Shown here: positions 53,488-63,954 of the stretch, in pieces
How positions within the stretch are numbered: position 1 is the first letter of the stretch
Layout: the number at the start of each line of letters is the position of its first letter
DNA from: an uncultured Solirubrobacteraceae bacterium
GTDB lineage: Bacteria > Actinomycetota > Thermoleophilia > Solirubrobacterales > Solirubrobacteraceae
Reading direction: 5' to 3'
Length of the DNA: 64,000 nt
NCBI GenBank assembly: GCA_963725515.1
Contig: CAVRZB010000008.1
Span: 137,791-201,790, forward strand
Notes under the pieces: model-generated
What the model saw: the letters and a program-made list of their open reading frames with translations, nothing else
Database searches by the model: none
Told to the model about the DNA's origin: nothing
Made by a program: the position numbers and the translations under genes

Positions 53488-54393
53488 ATGAGCCTCACGC
53501 CACGCACCGCGGCTTGGGCCCGCTCCGGGGAGCGCGTGAGTGTGCTCGGTGGCCACGAGGTCTTCGTGACCACGCGCGAGGGAACGGCGCCGTGGCTCAT
53601 CCTGCTGCACGGTTTTCCCTCGAGCTCCTACGACTGGCGAGCACTGCTCGAGGAGCCCGCGCTCGATGGCCGCGGCGTGCTGGCCTTCGACTTCCTCGGC
53701 TTCGGCCTTTCCGACAAACCCGCCGGCCGGCCCTATTCGCTGATGCCCCAGGCCGACCTGGTCGAGGAGCTGGTCGCGCGCTACTGCGGTCCGGAGGTCT
53801 TCGTCGTCGCCCACGACATGGGCACCTCGGTGGCCAGCGAGCTCTTCGCGCGCGACGTCGAGGGTCGCGGGCGGATCGCGATCTCGCGCGCGCTGCTGTT
53901 CAACGGCAGCATGCTGCTGCATCTCGCCAACCCGACGATCGGCCAGCGTCTGCTGCGCAGCCCAGCCGGTCCGTTCCTGGCCCGCGTGAGCACGGAGCGG
54001 TTCTTTCGCCAGCAGCTCGGGTCCGTCTTCTCGCCCGGCCATCCGCTGAGCGCCGAGGAGGCCGCCGATCAGTGGTCGCTCGTCACCGAGCGGGGCGGCC
54101 ACCGGCGGGCGCACGAGCTGATCGCCTACATGGACGAGCGCATCAAGTACGCCGAGCGCTGGCACGGCGCGATCCGCGACTGGAACGGTGAGCTCTCGCT
54201 GATGTGGGGCCTGCTCGACCCGGTCGCGCGGGTGGAGGTGCTGCGCGGCCTGCAGGAGCTTCGCCCCGGGGTCTCGGTCACAGAGCTGCCCGACCTCGGT
54301 CACTACCCGCAGCTCGAGGACCCCGCCCGCGTGGCCCAGGTGGTGGCCTCGACCTTCCCGGCGGCCGGCGCGCGCGTACCCTCCACGCCATGA
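53488..54393 (+). CDS. Alpha/beta hydrolase (MEST-like)
   Basis: LLHGFPSSSYDW, DFLGFGLSDKP, VAHDMG, GHYPQLE. Confidence 0.88.
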   Translation: MSLTPRTAAWARSGERVSVLGGHEVFVTTREGTAPWLILLHGFPSSSYDWRALLEEPALDGRGVLAFDFLGFGLSDKPAGRPYSLMPQADLVEELVARYCGPEVFVVAHDMGTSVASELFARDVEGRGRIAISRALLFNGSMLLHLANPTIGQRLLRSPAGPFLARVSTERFFRQQLGSVFSPGHPLSAEEAADQWSLVTERGGHRRAHELIAYMDERIKYAERWHGAIRDWNGELSLMWGLLDPVARVEVLRGLQELRPGVSVTELPDLGHYPQLEDPARVAQVVASTFPAAGARVPSTP

Positions 54394-55819
54394 GCCCGCA
54401 AGCCTGGTCGGAGTTGCTGCGCGAGCAGCGCGACCGGCCATGGCTCGGACTGGCCGTAGCCGGCGTCGCGGTCGCGCTGGCCACCGCCCTCATCTACCCG
54501 CTCAAGCATGTGGCGCCCGTCGTCTCGCTGAGCGTCGTGTACCTGCCCGCCGTGCTGCTCGTCTCGGCTCTGTGGGGACTCATCGACGGGCTCGTGACCG
54601 CGCTGGCCAGCGCAGCAGCGTTCAATTTCTTTCACCTCCCGCCCGTCGGGCAGTTCACGATCGCCGACAGCCGCAACTGGGTCGCGCTGGGGGCCTTCGT
54701 CGCGGCGGCGGTGGTGGTCAGCGGCGTGGCCGAGCTGGCCCGCAGCGGCGCGGTGCAGGCCGACCGGCGGCGCGGTGAGGCCGACCTCACCGCCGCGCTG
54801 GCCCGCGAGCTGCTGTCCGGATCCGGGACGCGCGATGCGCTCGGGGCGACCGCGCGCCGCGTGGCCGAGGCCCTCGGCCTGGCCTCGGCGTCGATCGAGC
54901 TCGGGGCCGCCGCCGCGGACGAACGCCGGCGGGCCGTTCCGCTGCGAGACGCCGACGGCCGCCAGATCGCCACGCTGCTCGTGCCGCACGACCTTCGCGG
55001 CGATACCAGCGAGCGCCTGCGCACCCGGCTGGCGCCGGCGCTCGGGGCGCTCGTGGCGATCGCCCTGCGGCGCGACGCCCTGCAGGCCGAGGCCGTGGAG
55101 ACCGCGGCCCTGCGACGCAGCGACGATGTCAAGACCGCCCTGCTGCGGGCTGTCTCACACGATCTGCGCACCCCCCTGACGGCGATCGTGGCCGCAGGCC
55201 ACGCGCTCGGGACGCAGTCGCTCACCGCCACCGAGCGGGTGGAGCTCAGCGCCGGCGTGGTCGAGGAGGCCGAGCGCCTCTCGCGGCTCGTCGAGAAGCT
55301 GCTCGATCTCTCCGTGCTCCAGGCCGGCCGCGCGTCCCCGCATCGCGACTGGGTATCGATCGAGGATGTCGTGCTCGCGGCGCGCGAGGGCCTCAGCGAC
55401 CCCGCCGCCGACGTCCGCGTGTCGATCGATCCGGACCTTCCCCCGGTGCGGGCCGACGCCGCGCAGCTCGAGCGCGCGTTCGCCAACCTGCTCGAGAACG
55501 CCCGCAGCTACTCGGGCGGGCTGCCCGTGTCGGTCGTCGCGCACCGCAGCGGCCAACGCGTCGTCGTGCGGGTCGTCGATCAGGGCCCGGGAGTCAAGCC
55601 CGCCGAGCGCGCCCGGATCTTCGAGCCCTTCTATCGCGGTCCCCAGGAGGGCCGCGGGCCATGGACGGGCTCGGGTCTGGGTCTGGCCATCGTGCGCGGC
55701 TTCGTCGAGGCCAACGGCGGGACGATCGCCGTCGACTCGCTGCCGGGGCAGGGCACGAGCTTCGTCATCTCGCTACCAATCGAGGCTGTGCCGTCCGAGC
55801 CGTCCCCCGAGGTGCGCGC

Positions 55820-55823
<4 letters not shown>
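54390..55823 (+). CDS. kdpD: KdpD-type sensor kinase, membrane + kinase part only
   Basis: DUF4118-like 4 TMs (FNFFHLPP..FTI), VSHDLRTPL, NLLENA, VVDQGPG, FEPFYRG, GSGLGLAI. Confidence 0.82.
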
Positions 55824-56503
<680 letters not shown>

Positions 56504-56597
56504 CCCGCAGCCGAGCGAAACCGCCCGCTCCGGCGGCCGAGGCCTCGCTAGGATCCTCGGCGGTGAGCCGGGAAGCCTGGTCGGCACATCCTTCGAC

Positions 56598-57944
56598 GTG
56601 CGCGAGGCTGATTTGCTCAACCGACTACGCGAGGTAAGGCCGCTCTCGTCCTGGCGACGCGAGACGCTTCGCACCAACCTGTGGCTTGTACCGACCGTCG
56701 AGGTGCTGCTGGCCACAGCGCTGTTCGCCGCGACCTACGCGCTGGACCGTGCCGCCTACCGCGGCACGATCAGCTTTCCGAACTGGATCTACGGCGGCAC
56801 CGCCGACGGCAGCCGGCAGGTCCTCACGGGGCTCGCGGCCGCGGTGATCACGGTCATCGGGCTCGTGTTCTCGATCACGATCGTCACCCTGACGCTGGCC
56901 TCCACGCAGTTCGGCCCGCGCATGCTGCGCAACTTCATTCGCGACCGGGTGACCCAGCTGACGCTGGGTACGTTCGTCGCCACCTTCGCCTACGCCGTGC
57001 TGACCCTGATCTCCATCAGCCCGGGACCACATGGCGATTTCATACCGCACCTGTCGATCACGATCTCACTCGTGCTGGTCGCGGTGGACCTCGCGGTGCT
57101 GATCGTGTTCATCGATCACATCGCCAAGTCGATCCAGCTGCCGCAGGTGATCGCCAGCATCGCCGGCGACCTCTCGCGCGCCATCGACGACTCGAACTCG
57201 GCGCCCGACCCCGTCGAGCTGCGGGCCGGCCCATCGATCTCCGAGATGCTGGGACGCCTCGACGAGTCGGGCGACCTCGTGCGGGCCCGGGCCAGCGGAT
57301 ACCTGCAGTTCGTGCGGCTCGACACGCTGCTCGGGATCGCGTCCCGCACACACGCCGTGATTCGGCTTCTGCACCGCCCGGGGCACTTCGTCAGCGAAGG
57401 ACAGCCGCTGGCCATCGTCTGGCCTGCGCAGGCGGCGCCCAAGGTGGCCCAGGCGCTGGACCGCGCTCACGCCACCGGTCCGCACCGAACGCTCGCTCAG
57501 GACGTGTCGTTTGCCGTCGACCAACTCGTCGAGATCGCGATTCGCGCCCTGTCGCCGGCGGTCAACGACACCTTCACCGCGCTGACCTGCATCGACTGGC
57601 TGGGCGACGGGCTGGGCAAGGTCTTCGCCCAATGGGATCCGGTCACGGCACATCGCGACCGCCGCGGCAACCTGCTCGTGATCACGGTGGCGGTCAGCGA
57701 CCGGCGGCTGGTCGAACGGGCCTTCGAGAAGATCCGCCAGGCCTCGCACGGGATGCCGGCCGTGATGATCCGCCAGCTCGAAGCGCTGCGCATGGTTATG
57801 AGCTCCTGTACCAACGACGCCCAGCGCGACGTCCTGATGGAACAGGCCGCGATGATCCTGCACGCCAGCCAGGTCTCGGTTTCCGAGGATCGAGATCGCG
57901 CCGACATCCTGCGACGCTATGAGGCACTCGTGGCCGCGCGCTGA
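56598..57944 (+). CDS. DUF2254 family membrane protein
   Basis: LTLASTQFGPRMLRNF, SGYLQ, QDVSFAVDQLVEIAIRALSPAVNDTFTA. Confidence 0.85.
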   Translation: MREADLLNRLREVRPLSSWRRETLRTNLWLVPTVEVLLATALFAATYALDRAAYRGTISFPNWIYGGTADGSRQVLTGLAAAVITVIGLVFSITIVTLTLASTQFGPRMLRNFIRDRVTQLTLGTFVATFAYAVLTLISISPGPHGDFIPHLSITISLVLVAVDLAVLIVFIDHIAKSIQLPQVIASIAGDLSRAIDDSNSAPDPVELRAGPSISEMLGRLDESGDLVRARASGYLQFVRLDTLLGIASRTHAVIRLLHRPGHFVSEGQPLAIVWPAQAAPKVAQALDRAHATGPHRTLAQDVSFAVDQLVEIAIRALSPAVNDTFTALTCIDWLGDGLGKVFAQWDPVTAHRDRRGNLLVITVAVSDRRLVERAFEKIRQASHGMPAVMIRQLEALRMVMSSCTNDAQRDVLMEQAAMILHASQVSVSEDRDRADILRRYEALVAAR

Positions 57945-57968
57945 GGGTCTGGCTTCTCGGAGGCCGCC

Positions 57969-58033
57969 TTCACACGATCTTGACGGCGGACCGTCGAACC
58001 TTCACCGGCCCTTGACACCGGCGGACCTACGCT
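57969..58033 (+). promoter_or_regulatory. Promoter module 1: four direct-repeat half-sites plus -10
   Basis: TTCAC 57969, TTGAC 57980, TTCAC 58001, TTGAC 58012, TACGCT 58028. Confidence 0.7.
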
Positions 58034-58039
58034 CGGCTT

Positions 58040-58564
58040 GTGACGTGGCGCCTGCGTATGCGTGTTCGCCTCACCCGCGGAGTCCTCGACCGGCAGCTCG
58101 CCCGAGGCGTGAGCGCCGATCGTTCACCGGCATTGGCACTGCGGGCAGATCAGCTCAGAAGCCCCGAGGTTCGTAGGACGATCGCCCGGCTGCTCGGCAC
58201 GATCGTGCAAGCCGCCGAGGAACGGAACGCCGACCCGAGCTCGCCCCTGATCGTCAACCACCCGGCGGTGCGCGATGCCAGTGCGGAGATCCAGGCGCTG
58301 ATCGGCCGCCTGCGCAGCACCGCCACGCTCGATCCGTCCGGGATCGCGCTGGCGCGGCTGCTCGTCCGAGACTCGAGGAGCCCAATGTTCTCCGCCGCCT
58401 CGGACCGCCGGCTGCGCGACGCGCTGGCGGAGATCGCCGGGCAGCTTGCGCCAGTCCATCGCGCCGGCGCGCCATGGGATGCCTCCTCCCCGTCCTCTTC
58501 ACGGAATCTTGACGGCGGCGCCCGCTATCTGCACGTGGCCTTTACGGACCCGCGCCTACCGTGA
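58040..58564 (+). CDS. Uncharacterised protein, paralog A
   Basis: GTG 6 nt after the -10 (leaderless); aligns by eye with 58599-59120. Confidence 0.65.
   Translation: MTWRLRMRVRLTRGVLDRQLARGVSADRSPALALRADQLRSPEVRRTIARLLGTIVQAAEERNADPSSPLIVNHPAVRDASAEIQALIGRLRSTATLDPSGIALARLLVRDSRSPMFSAASDRRLRDALAEIAGQLAPVHRAGAPWDASSPSSSRNLDGGARYLHVAFTDPRLP
58498..58562 (+). promoter_or_regulatory. Promoter module 2
   Basis: TTCAC 58498, TTGAC 58509, TGCAC 58530, TTTAC 58541, TACCGT 58557. Confidence 0.7.
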
Positions 58565-58598
58565 GAACAGTCCGGAATGCCAGACAGGACCGGTCTCG

Positions 58599-59120
58599 AT
58601 GACGATCAAGCCCTTGACTGTTAAGACCCCGCGGCGCAGCTCGGATCGGACCGAGCTGAGCGTCCCGAAGCCGCGCCTGCGACTTCGCCTGCGCGTGGGG
58701 TTCTCCCGCTTCCGCCTCGACCGTGAGCTGGCCGCAGGTCAGCCCGCCGGCGCCTCGAAGGAGCTGGCCCTGCGGGCCAGGCAGCTGACCGAACTCCCGG
58801 CGCGGCGCAGGCTCGCGAGCTCATTGAGGCACACGGTCGCGGACGCACAGCGACCGAATCCACCCGGCTTCAGCTCGGCCGTGCCGATGCGGCGCGATGC
58901 CGTGCGGAGCTGCGGCGAGGCGATGCTCGGCCTGGCCGACCGCCTCGAGCAGGAGCCTCCGCTGAGCGCGAGCGCCGTGGCGCGCGTGCTCGTGCTCCTC
59001 AGCGACGGTACCGGTCCGCTGTACAACGCCGGTTGCCCGCGTTCGCTGGGCGACGCGGTCTGGGCGGTTGTGGACGCCGAGCAGGGGTCCCACGACGTCG
59101 CCGCTCGCGCCGCCGACTGA
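58599..59120 (+). CDS. Uncharacterised protein, paralog B
   Basis: LDRELAAG...LALRARQL...AVR...L.DG.GPLY, homologous to paralog A; AGGA SD. Confidence 0.65.
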   Translation: MTIKPLTVKTPRRSSDRTELSVPKPRLRLRLRVGFSRFRLDRELAAGQPAGASKELALRARQLTELPARRRLASSLRHTVADAQRPNPPGFSSAVPMRRDAVRSCGEAMLGLADRLEQEPPLSASAVARVLVLLSDGTGPLYNAGCPRSLGDAVWAVVDAEQGSHDVAARAAD

Positions 59121-59155
59121 CCGCCGTCGCCCTGCGCCTCGCCGAGATGCACCTC

Positions 59156-59220
59156 TTCACAACATCTTCATGCCGCGCGCCGCTTTCTGCACGCGGTCTT
59201 GACTGGACAGCGGCCAGGAT
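59156..59220 (+). promoter_or_regulatory. Promoter module 3 (kdp operon promoter)
   Basis: TTCAC 59156, TTCAT 59167, TGCAC 59188, TTGAC 59199, CAGGAT 59215. Confidence 0.7.
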
Positions 59221-59226
59221 GCCCTC

Positions 59227-59307
59227 ATGGACTTCGTAGCCGTACTACTCGCGCTGGTGACGTTCGCCGTGCTCATCGGCCTGATCTACGGGATCGATCG
59301 GATATGA
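59227..59307 (+). CDS. 26-aa hydrophobic peptide upstream of kdpF
   Basis: Own translation MDFVAVLLALVTFAVLIGLIYGIDRI. ATG 6 nt after the -10; ATGA-coupled to kdpF. Confidence 0.65.
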   Translation: MDFVAVLLALVTFAVLIGLIYGIDRI

Positions 59308-59414
59308 GCCTGGTGCTCGCCAGCATGAGCGGCGCCGACGTCTTCGGACTCGTGGCCTCCGTGATCGTGTGCATCTACTTGCTGTACGCGCTGTTGCGCG
59401 GGGAGAAGTTCTAG
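59304..59414 (+). CDS. kdpF: K+-transporting ATPase subunit F
   Basis: ...IYLLYALLRGEKF C-terminus. An internal ATG at 59325 would give 29 aa. Confidence 0.85.
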   Translation: MSLVLASMSGADVFGLVASVIVCIYLLYALLRGEKF

Positions 59415-59418
59415 CGCC

Positions 59419-61191
59419 ATGACCTTCCTCGGCTGGCTGACGATCTTCCTGTTCGCGGGCATCCTGACGGCGTTCGCGATCCCGCTCGGCTCCTACATGG
59501 CTGCCGTGTATACGGGCGAGCGCACGTTCCTGGATCCGCTGTTCCGCGGCCCGGAGCGGCTGCTCTACAGAGTCATGCGGGTCGATCCGGACAAGGGACA
59601 GGATTGGAAGGCCTACGCCAAGTGCGTGATCTTCTTCTCGCTCGCGGGCTGGCTGCTGCTGTATTTCATTCTGCGCACGCAGACGCTGTGGAACTGGACG
59701 GGACTGAACCCGCAGCACTTCCACTCGGCGCCGTGGAACGTGACGTTCAACACGACCTCGTCGTTCGTGACGAACACGAACTGGCAGTACTACGGCGGGG
59801 AGACGACGATGAGCTACTTCAGCCAGATGGCCGGGCTGACAGTGCAGAACTTCGTCTCCGCCGCGGTCGGGATCTCGGTGGCGATCGCGGTGATACGGGG
59901 GATCATCGGCCGCAGCGGCAAGAGCCTCGGCAACTTCTGGCAGGACCTCGTGCGCACCGTGCTGTGGGTTTTGTTGCCGATTTCGTTCTTGGTCGCCCTG
60001 GTACTCGTCTTCCAGGGCTCGATCCAGAACTTCTCGCACTACCTGAACGTCAACGGCCCGACGGGGCTCGCCAACCAGATCGCGCAGGGCCCCGTTGCCT
60101 CACAGGAGGCGATCAAAGAGCTCGGGACCAACGGCGGCGGCTTCTTCAACACGAACTCCGCTCATCCGTTCGAGAACCCGAGCGGGTTCACGAATCTTGT
60201 CGAGATGCTGGCGGTGCTGATCATCCCCGCAGCGCTCGTCTTCTGCTACGGGAAGATGGCTGGCAAGCGCCGCCAAGGCTACGCGATCTACGCGACGATG
60301 ATGATCATGTTCCTCGGCGCGGCGATCGTCGCCTTCATCGCCGAGGCGCACGGGTCCCCTGCGCAGCATGCCGCCGGCCTTCACACCGGCGTGATCTCCG
60401 GTTCTGGCGGGGGCAACATGGAGGGCAAGGAGCAGCGCTTCGGGATCGCCGGCTCAGCCCTGTTCGACGTCGTCACGACGGTCACCTCTTGTGGCGCGGT
60501 AAACAGCGCGATCGAATCGTTCACGGGGATCGGCGGCGCGATCCCGATGGCGAACCTGTCGGCCAGCGAGGTGATCTTCGGCGGCGTCGGCACGGGCCTG
60601 TACTCGATCCTCTTGTACGTGCTGCTGGCGGTCTTCCTCGGCGGCCTAATGGTCGGCCGCACCCCGGAGTACCTGGGTAAGAAGATCGAGGCGCGCGAGA
60701 TCAAGCTCGTCGTGCTCGGTCTCTTGATCACGCCGCTGGCGGCGCTGTTCGCGACTTCGTTGGCGACTGCAAGCAAGGCCGGGCGAGCTTCGATCTCCGC
60801 CGCGGCCAGCGGTAGTCCACAGGGCTTTTCTGAGACCATCTACGCTTACCTCTCCCAAGCGAACAACAACGGTTCTGCGTTCGCGGGCTACACGGGCTTC
60901 ATCCAGCCCAACGCCGGCAACGTCGGCTCGCACGGGATCACGTTCGCCGACCTGCTCGGCGGTTTGACGATGCTGTTCGCTCGCTTTGCGCCGATTCTGT
61001 TCGCGCTCGCGGTCGCCGGCGCACTGGCCGGCAAGCGCGTCAGTCCCGCCGGCCTCGGCACGATGCGTACGGACAACCCGACGTTCGTCGTGCTGCTGAT
61101 CGGCGTGATCGTGCTCGTCGGCGCGCTCACCTTCTTCCCCGCCCTGCTGCTCGGACCGATCGTCCAGGGCCTGACCGGACACCTCTACTGA
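59419..61191 (+). CDS. kdpA: K+-transporting ATPase subunit A
   Basis: SFVTNTNWQYYGGE, IKELGTNGGGFF, MEGKEQRFG, GLMVGRTPEYLGKKIE, ANNNGSAF. Confidence 0.97.
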   Translation: MTFLGWLTIFLFAGILTAFAIPLGSYMAAVYTGERTFLDPLFRGPERLLYRVMRVDPDKGQDWKAYAKCVIFFSLAGWLLLYFILRTQTLWNWTGLNPQHFHSAPWNVTFNTTSSFVTNTNWQYYGGETTMSYFSQMAGLTVQNFVSAAVGISVAIAVIRGIIGRSGKSLGNFWQDLVRTVLWVLLPISFLVALVLVFQGSIQNFSHYLNVNGPTGLANQIAQGPVASQEAIKELGTNGGGFFNTNSAHPFENPSGFTNLVEMLAVLIIPAALVFCYGKMAGKRRQGYAIYATMMIMFLGAAIVAFIAEAHGSPAQHAAGLHTGVISGSGGGNMEGKEQRFGIAGSALFDVVTTVTSCGAVNSAIESFTGIGGAIPMANLSASEVIFGGVGTGLYSILLYVLLAVFLGGLMVGRTPEYLGKKIEAREIKLVVLGLLITPLAALFATSLATASKAGRASISAAASGSPQGFSETIYAYLSQANNNGSAFAGYTGFIQPNAGNVGSHGITFADLLGGLTMLFARFAPILFALAVAGALAGKRVSPAGLGTMRTDNPTFVVLLIGVIVLVGALTFFPALLLGPIVQGLTGHLY

Positions 61192-61192
61192 C

Positions 61193-61851
61193 ATGAGACG
61201 CGACATCATCACCTCCGCGCTCGGCATCGTCGTGTTGACGCTGCTGCTCGGAATCTTCTACCCGCTCGTCATCACGGGCGTCAGCCAGGTCGCCTTCCCG
61301 GGCAACGCCAACGGCCAGCAGATCAAGCTGAACGGCAAGCTCGTGGGCTCCAAGATCATCGGCCAGAACTTCGCCGAGCAGGTGGTCAAGAACGGCAAGC
61401 CGCAGGTCGACAAGAGCGGCAACCCGGTGACCACGCCGGATCCTAGGTACTTCCAGAGCCGCCCGTCGGCGACCGTCCCCCCGAACAACGCCGCCGCAAC
61501 CACGTTCTCGAACCTCGGGCCCAACAACAAGGCGACCGAGCAGGCGATCGCGGCCAACATCCAGTCCTACATCGCGCTCGAGAAGCCCTACGTCCCTGGG
61601 CTCACCGCGGCGACCGTCCCGGTCGACGCCGCCGACACCTCGGCCTCGGGGATCGACCCAGATATCTCGCAGGCCAACGCCTGGATACAGGCCCACCGGA
61701 TCGCGGCCGTCCGGCGTCTGCCGTTGGCTCGGGTGAATCAGCTCATCGCGCAGTACACCCACGATCGCGGGATCGGATTCTCCGGTGAGCCCGGGGTCAA
61801 CGTGCTCCAGCTGAACCTCACCCTCGACCGCCTGAGCGCCGGAGGCCGCTG

Positions 61852-61852
<1 letters not shown>
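61193..61852 (+). CDS. kdpC: K+-transporting ATPase subunit C
   Basis: [47 protein letters not shown]. Confidence 0.95.

Positions 61853-63954
<2,102 letters not shown>

Follow-up and report, generated by a model that had tools for sequence, protein, structure and literature searches.

Among bacterial K+ importers that are inducible or of high affinity, Kdp and Kup are the principal ones, and their post-transcriptional tuning is only partly understood. The pump genes are canonically arranged as kdpFABC. Cytoplasmic regulatory partners of K+ transporters include the RCK proteins TrkA/KtrA and the c-di-AMP receptors on KdpD, Kup and KimA. Additional kdp genes, kdpZ, kdpY and kdpX, are found in Clostridium acetobutylicum, and in work attributed to Treuner-Lange and colleagues (1997) and Behrens and colleagues (2001) the extra products reportedly co-purified with the pump. 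PhoB, a member of the OmpR family, recognizes Pho boxes, direct repeats of 11-bp period that stand in for the -35 element and lie about 10 nt upstream of the -10. In the KdpD/KdpE-kdpFABC systems of E. coli and Mycobacterium smegmatis (PMC5401905), the gene of an OmpR-family regulator adjoins the operon of the P-type K+ pump, which comprises kdpF and the pump genes; the footprinted KdpE site of M. smegmatis is the 22-bp sequence CCGTAAAGAAACCATCAAGGCC (PMC5401905).

Here, we analysed a 64,000-nucleotide stretch (hereafter the window; 70% GC) of contig C8 of a 4.25-Mb actinobacterial genome, in which an earlier note had pointed to two paralogous proteins, A and B, as candidate new components of the K+ response. 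We found that A and B belong to a large family, which is probably an undescribed accessory part of bacterial K+ uptake; this claim is drawn wholly from comparative genomics.

Organization of the kdp locus

Similarly to the described kdpFABC systems, the window holds an OmpR-family regulator gene close to the operon of a P-type K+ pump, together with kdpF and the pump genes. Every gene around A and B, from 54390 to 63954, lies on the + strand:

54390..55823, +, short KdpD-type histidine kinase (477 aa; DUF4118-HisKA-HATPase by Pfam)
55820..56503, +, KdpE-like OmpR-family response regulator (227 aa; Response_reg and Trans_reg_C by Pfam)
56598..57944, +, DUF2254 membrane protein (448 aa; PF10011, E 2.8e-112)
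57968..58033, +, promoter module 1: boxes CTTCACACGATCTTGAC (57968-57984, distal) and CTTCACCGGCCCTTGAC (58000-58016, proximal), -10 TACGCT at 58028-58033
58040..58564, +, paralog A (174 aa; GTG start, TGA stop)
58497..58562, +, promoter module 2: boxes CTTCACGGAATCTTGAC (58497-58513) and CTGCACGTGGCCTTTAC (58529-58545), -10 TACCGT at 58557-58562
58586..58589, +, Shine-Dalgarno-like AGGA, 9 nt upstream of the ATG of B and conserved in L002
58599..59120, +, paralog B (173 aa; ATG start, TGA stop; predicted eight-helix domain)
59155..59220, +, promoter module 3 (kdp operon promoter): boxes CTTCACAACATCTTCAT (59155-59171) and CTGCACGCGGTCTTGAC (59187-59203), -10-like CAGGAT at 59215-59220
59227..59307, +, 26-aa hydrophobic peptide MDFVAVLLALVTFAVLIGLIYGIDRI, predicted leaderless first cistron of the pump operon
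59304..59414, +, kdpF
59419..61191, +, kdpA
61193..61852, +, kdpC
61852..63954, +, kdpB
C8:201833-202462 (just beyond the window end; locus L046 74-1250), KdpD N-terminal domain as a separate gene (PF02702, E 1.5e-92)

The locus differs from the kdpFABC systems in several respects: it has three copies of the promoter, every one with two pairs of repeats of which the proximal occupies the -35 position, leaderless transcripts are predicted, two extra protein genes and the gene of a 26-aa peptide form part of the unit, KdpD is split, and the pump genes follow the order kdpF-A-C-B. The same order, kdpF-kdpA-kdpC-kdpB, was observed in every related locus that we examined (L019-L036).

The short kinase, whose start at 54390 was chosen to agree with its 477-aa orthologues in L001 and L002, the two closest metagenome relatives, has neither the KdpD N-terminal domain nor the Usp domain, and its best NCBIfam match is the C-terminal part of KdpD. 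Since the upstream kinase is devoid of the N-terminal domain, which is instead encoded separately after kdpB, KdpD is split. This separate gene directly follows kdpB, the PF02702 domain is followed by a Usp-like part, and its reading frame seems to shift near position 1100 of L046; further downstream are an ORF with transmembrane and Usp-like parts and, on the opposite strand, an APC-type permease. The regulator gene, whose GTG start was confirmed and overlaps the kinase stop, has KdpE as its best NCBIfam match, at 199.9 bits and thus under the equivalog cut-off of 325 bits.

The DUF2254 gene occupies the same place in L001 and L002 and adjoins family genes in L004 and L013. We rejected the idea that DUF2254 is a general partner of the family, because only 10 of the 35 family-positive genomes have DUF2254 and the adjacency is limited to the clade of the window and a few assemblies. 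A literature search on DUF2254, kdpX and kdp in Thermoleophilia returned nothing relevant. L001 (8046-9779) and L002 (6400-8133) each carry an orphan extra kdpA paralog (577 aa), which is absent from the window and stands directly after B, before module 3 and the complete kdpF-A-C-B set.

The gene of the 26-aa peptide is ATGA-coupled to kdpF, and homologues occupy the same position in L019-L026, L028, L030 and L037; in all kdp operons of the class that were read they are TGATG-coupled. The peptide may be an extra small subunit of the pump.

Promoter modules of the locus

As the earlier note had proposed, each paralog is preceded by its own kdp-type promoter: the promoter of the pump occurs in three copies with identical spacing, 32 nt from box start to box start and 28 nt from the start of the proximal box to the -10. 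The KdpE-type element is found before the pump genes as well, module 3 preceding peptide-kdpF-kdpA with the spacing of modules 1 and 2. The six 17-bp boxes fit CT[TG]CAC-N5-CTT[GTC]A[CT], with a TAnnnT-like -10. Five exact matches to the box pattern lie at the A/B locus, against 0.39 expected for the whole window; as the pattern was built from these very sites, the informative part of this count is the clustering. When both boxes were searched for with a strict pattern, the three modules were the only matches in the genome; this pattern is too strict, given that the promoter of a family-kup pair on contig C3 shares the architecture but has variant half-sites. On account of this shared architecture the regulon would comprise at least four promoters. 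Modules 1 and 3 are conserved in both L001 and L002, while module 2 is present in L002 and absent in L001.

The TTGAC of the proximal box lies only 10 nt from the -10, which is too close for a normal -35; the box itself ends 11 nt upstream of the -10. A scan of 56.4-59.5 kb for sigma-70 promoters and intrinsic terminators found none, which fits activator-dependent promoters; activator-dependent, pho-box-like promoters have the geometry seen in the modules. The modules resemble PhoB-dependent promoters in that the repeats take the place of the -35 and no sigma-70 -35/-10 pair was found, but differ from them in regulator, half-site sequence and signal. An Rfam scan of 54-64 kb gave no riboswitch or leader RNA and a single sub-threshold match, to ASdes.

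The modules also resemble the KdpE site of M. smegmatis (PMC5401905), the reverse complement of which, CTTGAT-N5-CTTTAC, has the architecture of the module boxes (CTTNAY-N5-CTTNAC): both are direct repeats spaced by 11 bp, the window having CTTCAC-N5-CTTGAC. Judging from this likeness, the KdpE-like regulator would bind to the modules.

The start codon stands 6 nt past the -10 both in module 1 (GTG of A) and in module 3 (ATG of the 26-aa peptide), and leaderless mRNAs are therefore predicted. Module 2 would instead give B an mRNA with a leader of ~30 nt and the AGGA site. Module 2 (58497-58562) lies within the reading frame of A, in its 3' tail, precisely as had been noted earlier. Compared with L002, 69 of 72 nucleotides of the module-2 stretch are identical, 23 of 24 at each codon position, whereas the rest of A shares 392 of 453 nucleotides and third positions are the least conserved there. 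Given this equal conservation of codon positions, it is the DNA of the tail of A that is conserved, not the protein. The locus presents, as a clean example from nature, a response-regulator promoter in three exactly spaced copies, one of which is found within a coding, disordered tail.

The idea that gene and promoter had been duplicated as one cassette finds support in general, as a four-half-site promoter with a leaderless family gene also heads kup operons, and G229 shows an independent tandem duplication of promoter plus gene. Clearly, the promoter-plus-gene unit recurs before different operons. For the A/B pair itself, module 2 may have been duplicated along with the gene, or may have arisen or been lost afterwards: in L001, A and B are ATGA-coupled and module 2 is missing, and L002 has all three modules. 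In the family tree, A and B form separate, well-supported clades, both of which are retained in the window, L001 and L002. P0004, a more distant A-like protein, has kept the tail sequence that encodes module 2.

Paralogs A and B

A and B are real paralogous proteins. They share 36% identity over 127 aa (BLASTP, E 2e-14), and a single family profile (A1) matches both over the whole domain (A, E 5e-46; B, E 3e-59); LDRxLAxG, LALRA, R and LLxDGxxP are the nearly invariant residues that they have in common. The third-position GC content (GC3; 0.83 for the core of A and 0.87 for B) indicates that the frames are genuine genes, and a dN/dS of 0.30 between the A core and the L002 orthologue shows that the protein is under selection.

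The description of the proteins in the earlier note, namely soluble-looking, Arg-rich and helical with no recognizable motif, was accurate for A and B. Arginine amounts to 15.5% of A and 13.9% of B (pI 11.6 and 11.1, respectively), neither protein has a hydrophobic 19-mer above 1.04, and AlphaFold2 predicts all-helical domains with pLDDT of 87.0 (A) and 89.5 (B). The helical domain of A spans residues 1-140 (score at least 91), and the predicted disordered residues 141-174 are exactly the part that bears module 2. The sole Pfam match was HEAT at E 0.019 for A, with nothing for B; the NCBIfam scan returned no match, and no toxin, antitoxin or defence model of PADLOC was matched.

Two other identities were considered. 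Homology to KdpF, KdpA, KdpB or KdpC found no support in the Pfam and NCBIfam scans, in which A and B had no Kdp-family match although Pfam holds KdpA and KdpC models; the pump genes are present separately at 59304-63954. A toxin-antitoxin or defence system was rejected and is contradicted by the homology of A and B to each other and by the PADLOC and Pfam scans, which gave no match.

The protein family

A word-indexed search retrieved 19 relatives with A and 137 with B, all annotated as hypothetical and none with a Pfam domain; one relative is recorded publicly from a Solirubrobacteraceae MAG. The profile search that had been suggested as a check, covering 1.84 billion representatives, revealed a large family of 4,931 clusters at 50% identity (E <=1e-3), 3,276 of them at E <=1e-10. 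Residues remain conserved in the family at 30-36% identity; Leu and Ala dominate among them, joined by one Gly, two Asp, two Arg and one Pro, and they fall in the motifs LDRxLAxG, LALRAxQL and LLTDGxGPLY. The family is very basic throughout, with a median pI of 10.6 vs 6.3 for the small ORFs of this genome.

Structure prediction, also proposed previously, yielded confident single-chain folds for A and B (pLDDT 87-90), but no solved relative was matched: the best E was 0.041 in the profile search of the PDB, and at least 0.77 in Foldseek searches of PDB and BFVD.

While A and B have no hydrophobic segment, some relatives are membrane-anchored, so that a soluble appearance does not extend to the whole family. 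The members in L019, L025, L037, L055 and L059 begin with one or two hydrophobic segments followed by a positively charged stretch, an arrangement suggesting that the conserved domain is cytoplasmic and held at the membrane. The N-terminal extensions of 'long' members look like over-called starts and were not accepted as fused domains. One subclade (P0027, P0043, P0048, P0050, P0054, P0057 and P0141) has an extension rich in Cys and His at the C terminus (CPPHAWGCPVIMKLDPEHVAWTC.RCGAI...RP), perhaps a zinc-binding module, which is absent from A and B.

Tandem pairs or triples of family genes recur (the window, L001-L003, L013, L028 and L050), and in P0140 two family domains are fused within a single polypeptide. 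Both observations suggest that A and B work as a pair.

Linkage to K+ transporter genes

In a sample of 301 genomes of the class, 35 were family-positive, with 65 family genes, and we determined linkage from the coordinates of these genes relative to KdpA and Kup matches. The 65 genes were distributed as follows:

up to 1 kb upstream of kdpA, on its strand: 16
otherwise within 8 kb of kdpA, on its strand: 10
immediately upstream of kup, on its strand: 7
away from K+ genes: 32

Hence, 33 of the 65 family genes are linked on the same strand to a K+ transporter gene. The earlier note had named homologs unlinked to kdp or two-component loci as telling against its proposal, and this is not what we observed: 26 of 65 are within 8 kb of kdpA, against 0.36 expected by chance, and the order histidine kinase-response regulator-family gene occurs in about 17 loci. 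At least one K+-linked copy is present in 24 of the 35 family-positive genomes. Moreover, kdp was found in 27 of the family-positive genomes compared to 90 of the 266 others (odds ratio 6.6, p 1.4e-6). Since only 27 of the 117 kdp-positive genomes of the class have the family, it is an accessory, not a core part, and dispensable for Kdp function.

The arrangement of the family genes varies. In L019-L026 and L037 the kdp operon opens with a leaderless family gene, and TGATG couples this gene to that of the 26-aa peptide, which is followed by a further TGATG and by kdpF, kdpA, kdpC and kdpB (families f8 and f12). In these f8/f12 loci, the kinase and regulator genes are followed by a promoter with boxes of the CTTGAG/CTTTAAG type, which precedes the family gene. 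In L030 and L033 the family gene is the last cistron and begins 2-5 nt past the kdpB stop, and in L035, L036, L057 and L060 it comes after a second kinase-regulator pair.

Family copies linked to kup (L029, L047, L052, L058 and C3:552683-553117 of this genome) have the same four-half-site promoter and leaderless start, and in L052 and L058 the called family gene overlaps the kup start by 4 nt. The Kup proteins of L052 (6534-8663) and L058 (7331-9448) carry an N-terminal extension of ~90 aa with repeated (S/H)(F/L)(H/N)EA(A/T)HKL motifs. According to the family tree, kdp linkage occurs in several separate clades, and two clades are kup-linked. In forming lineage-specific extra kdp cistrons the family is similar to kdpZ, kdpY and kdpX of C. 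acetobutylicum; it differs in that its members are found at the head of kup operons, too, and at places far from kdp.

Possible roles of A and B

The linkage to kdp, kup and two-component genes, together with promoter boxes similar to the KdpE site, supports the earlier suggestion that A and B are candidate new components of the K+ response. We consider it quite probable that they are real proteins of a K+-uptake-associated family and members of a local KdpE-type regulon. A family of ~4,900 clusters with a confident but unmatched fold, coupled into kdp and kup operons behind KdpE-type promoters, is a concrete candidate for a missing component, accessory or regulatory, of K+ uptake in soil Actinomycetota.

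We propose the following scheme. Under K+ limitation, the short KdpD-type kinase would phosphorylate the KdpE-like regulator, and KdpE~P would bind the two pairs of 11-bp-spaced direct repeats at the -35 place, an arrangement present in three copies. Three transcripts would start from there: leaderless A, B with a ~30-nt leader and a Shine-Dalgarno sequence, and leaderless peptide-kdpF-kdpA-kdpC-kdpB. Working from the cytoplasmic side of the membrane, A and B, probably paired, would finally tune K+ uptake via the transporter (Kdp here, Kup elsewhere) or via the kinase. KdpE binding, induction, the pairing of A with B, the target and the direction of the effect are steps that we infer from sequence comparisons.

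As to what the family does, the chances seem to us evenly balanced that its members, strongly basic all-helical proteins of ~150 residues, are accessory or regulatory cytoplasmic partners of K+ uptake systems, with the transporters or the kinase as their target. We favour this reading because family genes are translationally coupled in the operons of two unrelated importers, because membrane-tethered variants exist, and because the position right after the kinase-regulator pair is conserved. By analogy only, such partners may be likened to TrkA/KtrA-type proteins, which are encoded together with K+ importers and, as soluble proteins or domains, gate the importers from the cytoplasm; unlike those, A and B show neither an RCK or USP fold nor any other known fold or motif. 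Motifs for ligand binding or interaction were not recognised in A and B. In a more specific and tentative version, which we hold to be possible rather than probable, the family would be a new type of cytoplasmic regulatory subunit common to Kdp (a P-type pump) and Kup (a symporter), whose basic helical domain, sometimes membrane-tethered and probably paired, docks on the transporters or on the split KdpD and sets uptake in response to an intracellular anionic signal or K+. If this were true, there would be a post-translational control layer for K+ uptake carried by a fold with no solved relative; to our knowledge, no such layer has been described for Kdp or Kup in any organism.

Several observations speak against accessory partners: 32 of the 65 family genes are away from K+ genes, seven loci have an ABATE/zf-CGNR neighbour in their place, G152 has kinase, regulator and family gene but no kdpA, most kdp-positive genomes of the class do without the family, and a pI near 11 is expected of a nucleic-acid binder. 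A and B could be polyanion binders (of DNA, RNA or the ribosome) within the KdpE regulon, which would either co-regulate K+ genes at the transcriptional or post-transcriptional level or stabilise nucleic acids or ribosomes when cytoplasmic K+ falls, rather than partners of the transporter or kinase. The family's median pI (10.6 vs 6.3) and the arginine content of A and B (14-15.5%) are in line with this, as are the first-cistron position, which is common for autoregulators, and the half of the family that is away from transporters. We nevertheless find it unlikely, as the Foldseek and PDB sequence searches gave no helix-turn-helix or other nucleic-acid-binding fold, N-terminal hydrophobic segments anchor several relatives in the membrane, and the genes are tightly coupled in translation to cistrons of membrane proteins.

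Partners of K+ uptake must also be weighed against a general stress effector with no specific K+ role, which different regulators (KdpE, zf-CGNR) would have recruited, so that the linkage to kdp and kup would reflect shared regulation. A divergent ABATE/zf-CGNR gene adjoins the family gene in seven loci (L014, L042-L045, L048 and L053), four of which belong to one genus outside the class; histidine kinase-response regulator-family gene triples are found with no pump (L057 and L060), and the contexts of the remaining copies are diverse. However, the translational coupling inside kdp and kup operons exceeds what co-regulation requires, and linkage to two unrelated K+ importers, which arose repeatedly and independently in the tree, points to K+ uptake itself, making a general effector improbable in our view. 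Finally, that the repeated promoters are functional and the A and B frames are by-products, chance-open spacer in a 70% GC genome, has a negligible probability: A does have a disordered tail in which DNA rather than protein is conserved, and long chance ORFs are plentiful in the window, but 4,931 clusters, the A-core dN/dS of 0.30, GC3 of 0.83-0.87, confident fold models and residue conservation at 30-36% identity contradict it.

Other family copies

In a sample of 401 genomes of the phylum, only one genus outside the class carries the family, and by eye the neighbouring genes in that genus look mycobacterial. In the genome studied here, the kup gene downstream of the third family copy (C3:550817-552186, - strand) shows PF02705 in three pieces in different frames, being either a pseudogene or affected by assembly frameshifts. 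The fourth copy (C3:833989-834429) is located in a region of lower GC3 (C3:825989-842429), where nearby ORFs resemble, by eye, HicA/HicB and recombinases of the tyrosine and serine types. At C1:33904-34857, the family is matched by two or three fragments in tandem.
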